From: Escherichia coli
GTDB lineage: Bacteria; Pseudomonadota; Gammaproteobacteria; Enterobacterales; Enterobacteriaceae
NCBI RefSeq assembly: GCF_013122565.1
Contig: NZ_CP053258.1
DNA: 64,000 nucleotides
Strand: one strand, 5' to 3'
In this document: piece after piece, positions 2,841-56,314 of the stretch
Position numbering within the stretch: the stretch's first letter is position 1
Layout of the letters: every line of letters begins with the position of its first letter
Translations under genes and position numbers: made by a program
The notes under the pieces: model-generated
What the model was told of the DNA's origin: nothing
What the model saw: the letters and a program-made list of their open reading frames with translations, nothing else
The model's database searches: none

Positions 2841-3326
2841 ATGCAAGTTTTTATCATGCGTCACGGCGACGCAGCCCTCGATGCCGCCAGTGATTCGGTT
2901 CGTCCTCTGACTACTAACGGTTGTGACGAATCTCGCCTGATGGCGAACTGGCTGAAAGGTCAAAAAGTGGAAATCGAACGCGTTCTGGTGAGCCCGTTCC
3001 TGCGAGCCGAGCAAACACTGGAAGAAGTAGGGGATTGTCTGAACCTGCCTTCCAGTGCAGAAGTTCTGCCGGAGTTAACGCCCTGCGGCGATGTTGGTCT
3101 GGTCAGTGCCTATTTACAGGCGTTGACCAATGAAGGTGTTGCTTCGGTACTGGTGATCTCCCACTTACCGTTAGTCGGGTATCTGGTTGCCGAGTTATGT
3201 CCGGGCGAAACGCCGCCTATGTTTACCACCTCAGCCATTGCCAGCGTAACGCTTGATGAAAGCGGAAACGGCACATTCAACTGGCAGATGAGCCCGTGTA
3301 ATCTGAAGATGGCAAAAGCTATCTGA
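2841..3326 (+). CDS. sixA: Phosphohistidine phosphatase SixA
   Basis: 161-aa ORF starting MQVFIMRHGDA (RHG histidine phosphatase motif). Confidence 0.9.
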   Translation: MQVFIMRHGDAALDAASDSVRPLTTNGCDESRLMANWLKGQKVEIERVLVSPFLRAEQTLEEVGDCLNLPSSAEVLPELTPCGDVGLVSAYLQALTNEGVASVLVISHLPLVGYLVAELCPGETPPMFTTSAIASVTLDESGNGTFNWQMSPCNLKMAKAI

Positions 3327-3977
3327 AGCTATAGAAATATGCCCGGTGAGATCACGTCATCGGGCATCTCCTTTCGTTCCTCTTGGCTGTATTCACACAT
3401 TTTCCCATTGATTAGGCGATTATTTTTGTGGAGCTATATTTCATATTTATATGAATGGCAGGTTTTTCCGGGAATGACATATCGTGTGGCGGAGGGTTAT
3501 TTAAGGAATGCAATGACATTTATTAGAGGAGCCTGTAACAATAGGCACACGTAAATAAAATTAAAAAGGAGTTGTGTCTTGATTTATATTATATATTGTT
3601 TTTCATTAATTATCCGCAGAAAAAAACAGAAATCGCATTTTTTTGTTGTTGCTTTCTTATTACCCACTTTGTAATGTGGCCCATATGAATTTAACCGTTA
3701 TGCAATAATTACGTTCTGTATTCATAGGGAATTCCTCAAAAAACATTATCCATAGTGATATTTTAAGTTTTACTTAAAATCATTGTTAGTAAAACTAATT
3801 TGAATTCACCGTTCAAAACTCCCACTATCGCCGCACACCAAAGAATATCATCTTATGCAATCTTTTGCGGGAAGCAATGACGCATATTCGATGGTCATCT
3901 CTAAGCCGCTCACTTCAATATTAATCTGAGGTTTTCCGGCGCTTATAATTTAATTATTTATGGTTTAAGGACAAATA

Positions 3978-4544
3978 ATGAGTAAGTTTGTTAAAACTGC
4001 TATTGCAGCGGTGATGGTAATGGGTGCGTTCGCGTCAACTTCTTCCATCGCTGCCGGTAACAACGGTACCGCGCGTTTCTACGGCACCATCGAAGATTCC
4101 CCGTGCTCCATCGTGCCTGACGACCACAAACTGGAAGTTGATATGGGCGATATCGGTTCTGAAACACTGAAAGGCAGTAAATCAACCACCCCGAAAGAGT
4201 TCCAGATCCGCCTGCAGGACTGCGTGTTTGATACTCAGGCCAAGGCTTCGACTGTCTTCACCGGCACCATCTATACTGCGGTCGCCAACAGCAACAACTA
4301 CACCATTTTCAGCACCGAAACCGGTATGCCATTTGAGCATGTCAGCCTGGCGATTGGTGATGAACATGGCGCGGCATACAAAAGCGGTATGCCTATCGAA
4401 CAGGCGCTTACTATAGATTCCAGCACCACGAAAGGTAAACCTAACCAGACGCTGAACTTTAAAGCATGGCTGGTGGGTGAAAGTGAAATGCCGACCCTGG
4501 GGGCATTTGAAGCTAACACCACGTTCCAGATCACTTATCTCTGA
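3978..4544 (+). CDS. yfcV: Fimbrial major subunit of the Yfc chaperone-usher system
   Basis: 188-aa ORF with signal peptide and fimbrial-subunit features; first gene of a 7-gene chaperone-usher cluster; preceded by a 650-bp AT-rich region. Confidence 0.85.
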   Translation: MSKFVKTAIAAVMVMGAFASTSSIAAGNNGTARFYGTIEDSPCSIVPDDHKLEVDMGDIGSETLKGSKSTTPKEFQIRLQDCVFDTQAKASTVFTGTIYTAVANSNNYTIFSTETGMPFEHVSLAIGDEHGAAYKSGMPIEQALTIDSSTTKGKPNQTLNFKAWLVGESEMPTLGAFEANTTFQITYL

Positions 4545-53384: not shown

Positions 53385-54299
53385 GAATCTTGACCTTTTT
53401 TGCTGTTATCGCCACTCCCTGCCGTGGAAGTCAGCTTAGAACAATGTACTCCCCCAGGACGGTGTTTTGAAGGTCTGCAGAATAAGATTTTGCCAGAGGG
53501 GAAAGCTCGATTGTGCTGTTAATAACTTAATAATGGTAAAATAATGAGGTGTATATGCTTAATAAGTAATGTTATATAGTGAATTATTCTGATTGTTAAT
53601 TGTAAATGTGGTTTTTTTATCTGTAAGATAATTGTGTGAAAATGCCTCGTTTAAGAATTCACTACTGAATCGCGATGATGATATTTCCGCATTACGGAGA
53701 GTTTAACAGCGTGATGATTTCCGAGGTGTCGCAATGGGTTAAGGTGTGAAACTATTGTTAAGCGGAATTAATGAATGAGGATGATGCTAATTAATTATTA
53801 TTTAATATTCAAAAAGGTTTTGTTGTGCTTATTAATAATAGAAGATTACTTTGCCTAACATAACATAACTTTGCATCAGATAATTCGCAATGACCCTTAT
53901 AAATAAAAGGTTTTTGGGGTAAAATGCTCGGATAAATGACGGATCCCTGCTCTTGATGCCGCCTCACCATTGCTGTTTGTACGTGTTCGCGTATGACCAG
54001 CGATGCTGCACGAGAGTGGAACAAGGACTTACATTTACATTTATACAAACACGCGCATGTCATAAATAGAAAAGAGTGAGTAACTTAATAGATATGCGAT
54101 CCCTGAAGATATATTCTGTGGTCTACTTCAGGCATTATAACGGAACAATGTGAGTCGCTTTTTTAGTGCAACTCATATGCATTTTTACTTTCGTCCGGGT
54201 TCCGGATGAAACTGCCAGGGAGGCACATTACAAATGGAATTGCTTGTTTGTGTGTGCACAGCATTAACCAGCTCAGTATGAGCCGCCAGTAAGTGATAA

Positions 54300-55241
<942 letters not shown>

Positions 55242-55285
55242 TCGACGAACCATAGATAATTCCTGGAACAATAGTGTAAAAACGA

Positions 55286-55323
55286 GCCGCTGGGGGTGTT
55301 TTATACCCCAGCGGCTTTTTTTT
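55286..55323 (+). terminator. Hairpin plus T-tract after lrhA
   Basis: GCCGCTGGGG-tgttttata-CCCCAGCGGC followed by TTTTTTTT. Confidence 0.75.
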
Positions 55324-55870
55324 AGTAAAAATCCTTCCTCGCATAGTGCAGAACGTACAAAACTGTTCATTTTTCAATCACCAGAGATTCACACCCCGTA
55401 CGCACAAATAATCGCTTGAAAAAAATCACCTGCTACAATGATGTTAAAAAATACGTAAATTTGTTGCTGCGTTTTTGTTATGGAATGACAAAAGCGTGTC
55501 ACAGATCAAGAAAATACTCTCTTTTGGGGGGAGGAATCGACACAAATTCCTGTCAAAATAGACCCGTATTTTTTCCATTGCTTCACAACGGACACGATTC
55601 AACAACATCTAATTATCCTGGAGTCGTCAAGGATCTGGGATGAAAGGGCATTAAATGCTAATGCTGTTGATATTATGTAAACTAATGTGAAGAAACTTTT
55701 GTTAAAGTTGACAAAAGGTTATAGAAAGGAGTAAAAGACCACATCAATTAGCTGTATAAAAGAGTTTCTACAGTAATTGTAAGGTTTTTTTTATTCCTCC
55801 CCATGAATCGATGTGGCGTCCATCTGCCGTGAAGAGCAGTGAATCTGGCGCTACTTTTGATGAGTAAGCA

Positions 55871-56314
55871 ATGAGTATGTCAACATCCACTGAAGTCATC
55901 GCTCATCACTGGGCATTCGCTATCTTTCTTATCGTTGCCATTGGCCTGTGTTGCCTGATGCTGGTAGGCGGTTGGTTTTTAGGCGGTCGCGCACGCGCGA
56001 GGTCGAAAAACGTGCCGTTTGAATCCGGTATCGACTCGGTCGGCTCCGCCCGCTTACGCCTGTCCGCCAAGTTTTATCTGGTGGCCATGTTCTTCGTTAT
56101 CTTCGACGTTGAAGCGCTGTATCTGTTCGCATGGTCAACCTCTATCCGCGAAAGCGGCTGGGTAGGCTTTGTGGAAGCTGCAATTTTTATTTTTGTGTTA
56201 CTGGCAGGTCTGGTTTATCTGGTGCGTATTGGCGCGCTGGACTGGACGCCCGCGCGTTCACGCCGCGAGCGTATGAACCCGGAAACGAACAGTATCGCTA
56301 ATCGTCAACGCTAA
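55871..56314 (+). CDS. nuoA: NADH:quinone oxidoreductase subunit A
   Basis: 147-aa membrane ORF, first gene of the nuo operon. Confidence 0.95.

Follow-up and report, generated by a model that had tools for sequence, protein, structure and literature searches.

The 547 bp between lrhA and nuoA in this stretch of Escherichia coli DNA (64,000 nucleotides in all, hereafter the window) very probably represent, taken as a whole, the cis-regulatory DNA of the nuoA-N (NADH dehydrogenase I) operon together with the operon's 5' leader. The leader also carries a hairpin that covariation across species shows to be a conserved structured RNA element, maintained by compensatory substitutions. The coding sequence of lrhA occupies 54303-55241 and that of nuoA 55871-56314, both on the plus strand and with nuoB and nuoC downstream, and the spacer (55324-55870) extends from the first base past the lrhA T-run to the base preceding the nuoA ATG. 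lrhA and nuoA are annotated on the matching stretch in 5,423 of the 5,426 complete E. coli genomes in RefSeq; the best identity to these genomes is 98.1% over 701 bases around the spacer. The spacer has a GC content of 0.375, compared with 0.524 for the whole window, and only 1.4% of 547-bp windows are equally AT-rich, at three places: this spacer, the alaA-lrhA spacer and 3215-4132. No Pfam family matches the open reading frames inside it (75, 54 and 43 aa), which indels disrupt in related genomes, and the K-12 annotation places no feature between lrhA and nuoA. There is no credible open reading frame in 55324-55870, and an earlier note on this DNA, which had described about 550 bp of non-coding, AT-rich sequence from the lrhA terminator to nuoA, was right on this point. 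As a control region the spacer brings nothing new: it is a textbook multi-regulator promoter region that was already known.

How is the spacer organised? The occupancy and start sites given here are published K-12 maps moved onto the near-identical sequence of the window, with no indel to offset the K-12 coordinates from 55330 to 55900. The comparison with published maps that the earlier note had advised could thus be made, and the nuo start sites, the ArcA operators and the FNR and sigma-70 ChIP peaks all find a place on the window. A by-product is a coordinate-level map which reconciles several published data sets on the window sequence. Its features are the following (coordinates of the window; positions relative to the start site count from 55743).

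55284-55323, plus strand: terminator-like hairpin of lrhA, stem 55284-55295 with 55306-55317 (12 bp), 10-nt loop
55316-55323, plus strand: T8 run of the lrhA terminator, just outside the spacer and setting its left edge
55324-55437, no strand: unconstrained spacer, 114 bp after the lrhA terminator
55442-55484, plus strand: distal ArcA operator 'nuoA2' at -301 to -259, made of three direct repeats
55485-55519, no strand: block C, ATGACAAAAGCGTGTCACAGATCAAGAAAATACTC, ultra-conserved and under the FNR ChIP peak
55524-55561, 55590-55607 and 55644-55663 (GGGCATTAAATGCTA, Fis-like), no strand: conserved blocks in the alignments, predicted protein sites
55664-55694, plus strand: proximal ArcA operator 'nuoA1' at -79 to -49, made of three direct repeats at 11-bp intervals
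55694-55746, plus strand: core sigma-70 promoter, from an A/T-rich tract (55694-55707) through the start sites
55708-55713, plus strand: -35 hexamer TTGACA, 6/6 consensus, with an 18-bp spacer downstream
55732-55737, plus strand: -10 hexamer TAAAAG, 4/6 consensus, without the final T
55743 and 55746, plus strand: start sites A55743 (major) and A55746 (Kim 2012)
55745-55779, plus strand: 5'-proximal leader stem-loop, variable in sequence, pairing recurs
55785-55812, plus strand: pyrimidine-rich tract, UUUUUUUUAUUCCUCCCC then AUGAAUCGAU, predicted single-stranded
55813-55854, plus strand: conserved leader hairpin, 42 nt, RNAalifold consensus
55813-55820 with 55847-55854, plus strand: outer helix of the hairpin, 8 bp
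55824-55828 with 55834 and 55836-55839, plus strand: inner helix of the hairpin, 5 bp
55855-55861, plus strand: U-tract UUUU and RNA 3' ends at 55857 and 55861 (Term-seq, Adams 2021)
55862-55879, plus strand: nuoA translation initiation region, in-frame ATGs at 55871 and 55877

Simple terminator and promoter scans made no call in the spacer region. They miss the lrhA terminator because its 10-nt loop falls outside the scan rules, and the nuo promoter because the scan demands a T at position 6 of the -10, which is absent here. The lrhA hairpin folds at -29.3 kcal/mol (z = -5.75); in the Term-seq data of Adams 2021 the lrhA 3' end lies at about 55271-55272, 12 nt ahead of the hairpin and not in the T-run.

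Transcription most likely starts from a single dominant aerobic sigma-70 promoter, at A55743/A55746. The genome-wide mapping of Kim 2012 gave two starts for nuoA, at 2403222 (4,218 reads, 128-nt UTR; 55743 here) and at 2403219 (1,744 reads, 125-nt UTR; 55746 here). These are the only ones upstream of the gene, with 5,962 reads together, and a 40-read start just inside the nuoA coding sequence was assigned to nuoB. Genomic SELEX with RpoD selected TTGACA-18-TAAAAA for nuo in K-12 (Shimada 2014), and the sigma-70 ChIP peak of Myers 2013 at 55734 is about 8-fold stronger aerobically (2886 versus 373). The features expected of a sigma-70 promoter are therefore all found: hexamers at 18-bp spacing (16-18 bp being expected), a mapped start in K-12 within the expected 5-9 nt past the -10, and sigma-70 occupancy. 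The alignments show 55697-55736 to be almost invariant across families. The weak -10 would be offset by the consensus -35, the A/T-rich DNA upstream and activators.

The nuoA-N promoter region of K-12 is reportedly the subject of Bongaerts et al. 1995 and Wackwitz et al. 1999. It is the same locus, about 97-98% identical to the window over 55200-55900, and the window has its promoter hexamers, start sites and ArcA operators as well as the DNA beneath its FNR peak. Across the promoter the window equals K-12 except for one -10 base (TAAAAA in K-12, TAAAAG here), and a second difference, G in K-12 against C in the window, is found at 55664, the first base of the proximal ArcA site. These single-base differences leave the architecture unchanged.

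Which regulators act on the DNA upstream? Park 2013 reported two ArcA ChIP-seq regions at nuo, a 2.7-fold de-repression in an arcA mutant and a reduced anaerobic sigma-70 occupancy. The distal operator, TGTTAAAAAATACGTAAATTTGTTGCTGCGTTTTTGTTATGGA, is identical to the site with a ChIP-seq peak in Table S4 of that work, and its first repeat, GATGTTAAAAAA, is invariant in Enterobacteriaceae; the proximal operator is the published site GTGTTGATATTATGTAAACTAATGTGAAGAA apart from the C for G at its first base. An operator for ArcA-P was taken to have at least two direct repeats (core TGTTA) at a centre-to-centre distance of 11 or 22 bp, together with occupancy in vivo, and both published operators have these. 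The repeat cores TGTTG, TGTAA and TGTGA are retained even in a divergent E. coli allele. ArcA-P bound at the proximal and distal operators would lower anaerobic polymerase occupancy, and at -79 to -49 it would probably repress because it keeps RNA polymerase from making its upstream contacts.

The FNR ChIP peak of Myers 2013 (2403450 in U00096.2, 55515 here, near -228 from the start site) was found by every peak caller, with a PWM ln p of -8.77. It lies over block C, which is near-invariant in 36 Enterobacteriaceae and largely kept in Yersinia, Serratia, Erwinia, Pantoea, Dickeya and Pectobacterium. Block C contains a TTGAT half-site on the minus strand (55505-55509); the best FNR-like 14-mer (55496-55509) has one perfect half-site and three mismatches to TTGAT-N4-ATCAA, and shuffled sequence yields matches of this kind at least as often. 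IHF, ArcA, NarL and Fis are listed as known regulators of nuoA by Myers 2013, and this list and the FNR peak bear out the earlier note, which had named these factors for a nuo control region. CpxR sites in the nuo promoter region have also been reported (PMC8831704); a CpxR-like GTAAA-N5-GTGAA, one mismatch from GTAAA-N5-GTAAA, overlaps the proximal ArcA operator at 55677-55691, with a match count not clearly above shuffled sequence. A Fis-like match in GGGCATTAAATGCTA (55646-55660, one mismatch) is not above chance either. More generally, consensus scans of the region for FNR, NarL, IHF, Fis, CpxR, CRP, Cra, Lrp and PdhR gave about as many matches as shuffled sequence (the patterns included TACYYMT heptamers for NarL, WATCAANNNNTTR for IHF, GNNYAWWWWWTRNNC for Fis and GTAAA-N5-GTAAA for CpxR). 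For this reason most conserved blocks are not assignable to factors from sequence alone. We infer that the remaining conserved upstream blocks are protein-binding sites, and FNR, NarL, IHF, Fis and CpxR would act on conserved upstream blocks.

Conservation sets the limits of the functional sequence. We collected 80 Enterobacteriaceae loci via NuoA: lrhA precedes nuoA in all 80, and the gap measures 627-637 bp in most genera. In an alignment of 37 species, identity between the window and 34 non-Escherichia Enterobacteriaceae averages 0.29 for the first part of the spacer (55324-55437), 0.68 for the upstream part (55438-55663), 0.83 for the promoter (55664-55743) and 0.74 for the leader (55744-55870), compared with 0.59 for the fourfold-degenerate sites of nuoA and nuoB. 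This alignment shows purifying selection on about 430 bp (55438-55870), since identity exceeds that of the fourfold sites there, and its absence from the first 114 bp, which fall below them. Thus the whole 547 bp cannot count as control DNA, as the earlier note had it: the first 114 bp are without constraint and the last 128 nt are transcribed as leader, and the description holds for the approximately 305 bp in between. This upstream control module is conserved in blocks, partly also in three further families. Ten further loci were examined, from Yersinia, Serratia, Erwinia, Pantoea, Mixta, Dickeya, Pectobacterium, Brenneria and Lonsdalea, and a LysR-family gene lies ahead of nuoA in all ten of these Yersiniaceae, Erwiniaceae and Pectobacteriaceae contigs. 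Leminorella, with one Budviciaceae contig, has other genes upstream, no LysR-family neighbour among them, and a different leader. The whole spacer was aligned for six of the ten (Yersinia, Serratia, Erwinia, Pantoea, Dickeya and Pectobacterium). All six genera retain GATCAAGAAAATAC, in the block under the FNR peak, GGAA-N8-ATTCCTG, ACGGACACGATTCAAC, GCATTAAATGCTAA and the proximal ArcA/CpxR-like TGTAAA-N-TAATGTG, and the core promoter is almost unchanged in four of them (Yersinia, Serratia, Erwinia and Pantoea).

The earlier note had seen nothing anomalous in the spacer, and here it has to be amended: the conserved, covarying hairpin of the leader coincides with a mapped RNA 3' end. Folds of individual species return a recurrent hairpin just ahead of the ribosome-binding site. 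The RNAalifold consensus was built from 65 distinct Enterobacteriaceae leaders, to which ten sequences from three further families were added, making 75. Among the 65 leaders, 98.7% of cells are paired, compared with 16-51% when the partner is slid, and 46 cells are compensatory, compared with 9.6 in shuffles; for the 75 sequences from four families the values are 97.2% versus 17-50% and 61 versus 13.7. Six of the eight pairs of the outer helix have changed on both sides (GC to AU, CG to UA, UA to CG), and none of 500 shuffles of the 75 sequences attains the observed number of both-sided pairs. G-U intermediates are frequent, which indicates that the constraint is on the sense-strand RNA and not on DNA. 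The hairpin measures 41-46 nt across the 75 sequences, with energies of -10 to -17.5 kcal/mol; in the window it folds at -15.3 kcal/mol, and with its flanks (55806-55862) at -19.9 kcal/mol (z = -2.6). The inner stem (CUGCC...GAGCAG) is almost invariant in sequence. The same applies to the tract UUAUUCCUCCCCAUGAAUCGAU upstream of the hairpin: the pyrimidine-rich stretch is near-invariant in Enterobacteriaceae, reads UCCUUCCCUUGAAUCGAU in the other families and stays unpaired in folds. Such invariance of inner stem and tract suggests recognition by some partner. Rfam has no match to the leader, and its three matches elsewhere are at chance level (E 0.2-0.7, far below the gathering score). A full-text search returned no specific description of a nuoA leader hairpin in the papers that it covered. 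As a lead beyond the known control region the hairpin is modest, and it is deeply conserved.

What happens to the RNA at this hairpin? Adams 2021 mapped a 3' end at 2405086 (55857 here) in LB at OD 0.4, with 282,730 reads, and a second one at 2405082 (55861 here), with 475,924 and 124,622 reads in other conditions; both are classed as 'orphan'. The end at 2405086 has a Rho score of 0.82, marked 'No' (not significant), and an intrinsic terminator score of 11.56, with a threshold of 3.0. Read counts at the two ends are above most others in the table parts compared. No characterised element is recorded for the end at 2405086, and nuoA is absent from the main text of that work. The two ends lie 3 and 7 nt past the stem, the usual place for intrinsic termination, and the hairpin with its U-tract, which makes up the 3' half of the leader, lies 10-14 nt ahead of the nuoA start codon. 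UUUU follows the stem directly in 52 of 75 sequences, and at least four U occur within the next 8 nt in 72 of 75. In the window the hairpin is followed by UUUUGAUG; a canonical terminator would be stronger, and the simple scan makes no call there. The features of an intrinsic terminator are nonetheless found, namely a stable hairpin with a U-rich tract and a Rho-independent 3' end in the U-tract.

Beyond the 3' ends the nuoA initiation region begins. The second nuoA ATG (55877) is invariant; Serratia, Erwinia, Dickeya and others lack the first. Eight nucleotides at the first one, AAGCAAUG (55867-55874), are complementary to RyhB, using the K-12 RyhB sequence; the duplexfold energy of RyhB with nuoA is uninformative (shuffle fraction 0.198). 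One study counts nuo among the known or predicted RyhB-regulated operons, and another inferred nuoA as a novel RyhB target.

Is the hairpin a terminator? It may be a partial intrinsic terminator (attenuator), a reading to which we give slightly less than even credence: hairpin and U-tract would end a fraction of the transcripts at +115 to +119, leaving a leader RNA of about 115-119 nt. Termination cannot be efficient, because nuo is well expressed. With only 4 U the U-tract is short, and some genera have it in degraded form; 3' ends just ahead of start codons are also common in the Adams 2021 data, and both points count against an attenuator. They bring up a different role, somewhat doubtful in our view, in which the hairpin does not terminate transcription: it would block 3'-to-5' exonucleases after an endonucleolytic cleavage in the A/U-rich ribosome-binding region. 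The ends at 55857 and 55861 would then be decay intermediates, and the hairpin would serve mRNA stability or the presentation of a weak ribosome-binding site. Many 3' ends in the Adams 2021 data lie 5-14 nt ahead of start codons, a few genera have CACU, UAAU or UAAA in place of UUUU and yet keep the hairpin, nuoA has no strong Shine-Dalgarno, and RyhB, being complementary to the sequence at the start codon, would bring about cleavage shortly downstream. This is countered by an intrinsic score well over the threshold with no Rho dependence, and by the position of the ends immediately after the stem with UUUU following it directly in most sequences. An antiterminator was also looked for, and neither folds nor alignments show a conserved alternative pairing with either arm of the hairpin, a further point against an attenuator. 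Going further, the nuoA leader (55743 to about 55861) could conceivably be a conserved riboregulator, either as a partial intrinsic terminator whose read-through is set by a factor recognising the tract, the inner stem-loop or both, or through its abundant terminated product, a trans-acting, 5'-UTR-derived sRNA of about 115-119 nt; we consider this unlikely. As for features of a candidate Hfq-dependent trans-acting sRNA, the conserved single-stranded tract 55785-55812 is present and the U-tail is short. Complex I is costly in iron and responds to oxygen, nitrate, growth phase, envelope stress and iron. If the leader were a riboregulator, the synthesis of complex I would have a post-initiation layer of control across Enterobacterales; if the hairpin modulates read-through or RNA stability, it would be an overlooked control point for the largest enterobacterial respiratory enzyme.

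The putative partial terminator has its closest counterparts among the premature 3' ends and 5'-UTR-derived RNAs of Adams 2021, with which it shares a strong end at a hairpin and U-tract in the 5' UTR, Rho independence and a high intrinsic score; the nuoA end differs in being a table row only, with no regulatory element recorded, and no ligand, sRNA, uORF or antiterminator was assignable to it. The leader-peptide attenuators of trp, his and pheA and riboswitch terminators also place a terminator-like leader hairpin near the first gene. Unlike them, the nuoA leader has no conserved leader peptide, no antiterminator helix that was found and no Rfam match. We would class the leader element as an uncharacterised 5'-UTR terminator/attenuator, a type of element that is already known.

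The reading of the spacer as control region and leader has rivals of its own, one of which concerns the number of promoters. Several nuo promoters of comparable weight, as in the older primer-extension map, would lie upstream at about 55576-55620 and downstream at about 55781-55793, which would turn some of the upstream module and some of the leader into promoter DNA. Two nuo starts from earlier mapping, 173 bp apart, are cited by Park 2013. With a precision of about 12 nt they fall on the window at roughly 55608-55620 and 55781-55793, and they do not coincide with the genome-wide start site at 55743/55746. Myers 2013 lists two nuoA promoters and has a second sigma-70 ChIP peak at 2403389 (55576 here) that is stronger anaerobically (aerobic 1576, anaerobic 2485). 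The upstream older start is compatible with this peak, and a second, anaerobically favoured sigma-70 entry site may exist near 55576. Candidate hexamers exist as well, TCTAAT at 55608-55613 and TACAGT at 55769-55774. Against this, genome-wide mapping yields nothing besides the start pair and the weak site assigned to nuoB, conservation within the module is lowest at about 55608-55640, a segment missing outside Enterobacteriaceae in the aligned families, and compensatory changes show the conserved sequence downstream to be constrained as RNA. Promoters of comparable weight are rather improbable on this evidence, and the multi-promoter control suggested by the earlier note is backed by the two sigma-70 ChIP peaks, whereas one dominant promoter emerges from start-site mapping.

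Could the conservation instead come from an unannotated small protein gene, for example a 9-codon uORF at 55803 or the 75-aa and 54-aa frames? An ATG or GTG stands at the uORF position in 59 of 65 leaders, and in 18 of those 59 a 23-codon frame overlaps nuoA at its end through an ATGA. The uORF lacks a Shine-Dalgarno, however, it ranges from 9 to more than 27 codons and changes frame, so that the peptides are frameshifted, its start is lost in 6 of 65, and the substitutions in the stem are compensatory for pairing, not synonymous; the larger frames, without Pfam match, are broken by indels. Such a gene is very improbable, and as a leader peptide the uORF at 55803, which overlaps the hairpin, was rejected, being not conserved as a leader-peptide attenuator needs. 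Hardly credible at all is the idea that the AT-rich stretch is neutral or horizontally acquired filler (e.g. H-NS-silenced) with a minimal promoter only. It draws on the low GC content and on the unconstrained first 114 bp, and for 55324-55437 it is a fair description. For 55438-55870 it is refuted by conservation above that of synonymous sites in the 34 non-Escherichia genomes; spacer length is also steady to within a few bp in most genera, and the ChIP-mapped ArcA, FNR and sigma-70 sites are present.

Among known promoters, cyoABCDE and pdhR-aceEF-lpdA (Park 2013) resemble nuo in that a distal ArcA region is paired with a promoter-proximal one, several direct repeats occur at intervals of 11 or 22 bp, and sigma-70 occupancy is lowered anaerobically. 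At nuo, in contrast to these, the effect of ArcA is weak, and the proximal site stops at -49 and does not overlap the -35 and -10 hexamers.

Several other candidate elements were tried and discarded. The palindrome AGGAAT-N8-ATTCCT (55530-55549) is not kept, and most species have an A at the key T position. A 10-nt inverted repeat, GGGGAGGAAT (55526-55535) and ATTCCTCCCC (55792-55801), is without covariation: species that change the downstream arm ATTCCTCCCC retain the upstream arm GGGGAGGAAT, which lies outside the transcript. An outer AUCGA/UUGAU helix extending the hairpin is specific to certain lineages, and a sigma-54-like TGGCGT-N5-TGC in the leader has its spacing off by one and consists of bases that covary as RNA pairs. 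Not among the discarded elements, the 5'-proximal stem-loop recurs in most of 71 leaders with differing stems, and its thermodynamic signal is weak (mean z -0.92), so the folds are only suggestive of a real structure. Finally, Ravcheev 2007 reported no candidate FNR, ArcA or NarP sites ahead of nuo in Yersinia, whereas the proximal ArcA-like repeat is still recognisable in the Yersinia sequence.

Where does translation of nuoA begin? Two in-frame ATG codons lie within 55871-55879, and the annotated start is the first of them (55871). Some Kluyvera have TTG in place of this codon, and it is missing from Serratia, Erwinia, Pantoea, Dickeya, Pectobacterium and Brenneria. All 75 sequences compared, 65 leaders from Enterobacteriaceae and ten from three further families, share the second one (55877, ATGTCA) without change. 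Because the second ATG is unchanging and the first is variable or missing, the comparison suggests that the true nuoA start may be 55877. Both codons fall within a stretch with complementarity to the small RNA RyhB (55867-55881): AAGCAAUG, which spans the first AUG, is a perfect complement of RyhB CAUUGCUU, and RyhB also has a complement, GACAU, for the AUGUC at the second AUG. The RyhB-complementary 8-mer is kept in Enterobacteriaceae and not in Serratia, Erwinia or Dickeya. Published work lists nuo with operons whose regulation by RyhB is known or predicted, and infers nuoA to be a RyhB target.

Upstream of the leader, the control region differs between families. Compared with Enterobacteriaceae, six genomes of Yersiniaceae, Erwiniaceae and Pectobacteriaceae (Yersinia, Serratia, Erwinia, Pantoea, Dickeya and Pectobacterium) have an insertion of about 37 bp near 55571 and are missing about 33 bp at 55604-55636, so the distance from the upstream blocks to the promoter is roughly preserved. 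At the edge of the most conserved block of the region (55485-55519), positions 55484-55490 read GGAATGACAAAAG in the window and in K-12; E. albertii and the other aligned genera have two changes there (A to T and G to A), giving ...TTAACAAAAG. From the alignment, this looks like a substitution pair specific to E. coli.

Within E. coli, differences also reach the promoter and the proximal ArcA operator. The -10 hexamer ends in G (55737) in the window, as in two further E. coli strains, giving TAAAAG; in K-12 and nearly all other genera it ends in A (TAAAAA). The proximal ArcA site begins (55664) with C in the window and with G in K-12. Across E. coli genomes the lrhA-nuoA spacer falls into two identity bands, one at 95-99% (n=4,380) and a divergent one at 90-95% (n=1,043). 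In strain ZLWT, the one genome of the divergent band that was aligned, about 14 differences cluster over 55630-55700, a span that includes the proximal ArcA operator, and the operator's repeat cores TGTTG, TGTAA and TGTGA are retained. This divergence within E. coli is noted for 55616-55700.

On the lrhA side, the Term-seq entries available from the published tables (Adams 2021) place the primary lrhA 3' end at K-12 2405672/2405673 (window ~55272/55271), 12 nt 5' of a strong hairpin followed by T8 (55284-55323), and those entries contain no 3' end at the T-run itself. Because an A-run is also present on the 5' side of the hairpin, this structure could work in both directions.

Long AT-rich sequence is also found elsewhere in the window. 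The alaA-lrhA spacer (53385-54302) is a second such region, of 918 bp and GC 0.378, with a published FNR ChIP-chip peak and a published anaerobic sigma-70 peak (Myers 2013). The lrhA 5' UTR measures 371 nt from its published start site (window ~53932), and the available Term-seq entries include 3' ends within it, one at ~54011 and one at 54253, which is 50 nt upstream of the lrhA ATG. Over 547 bp, a single other part of the 64 kb is as AT-rich as the nuo and lrhA upstream regions: 3215-4132.
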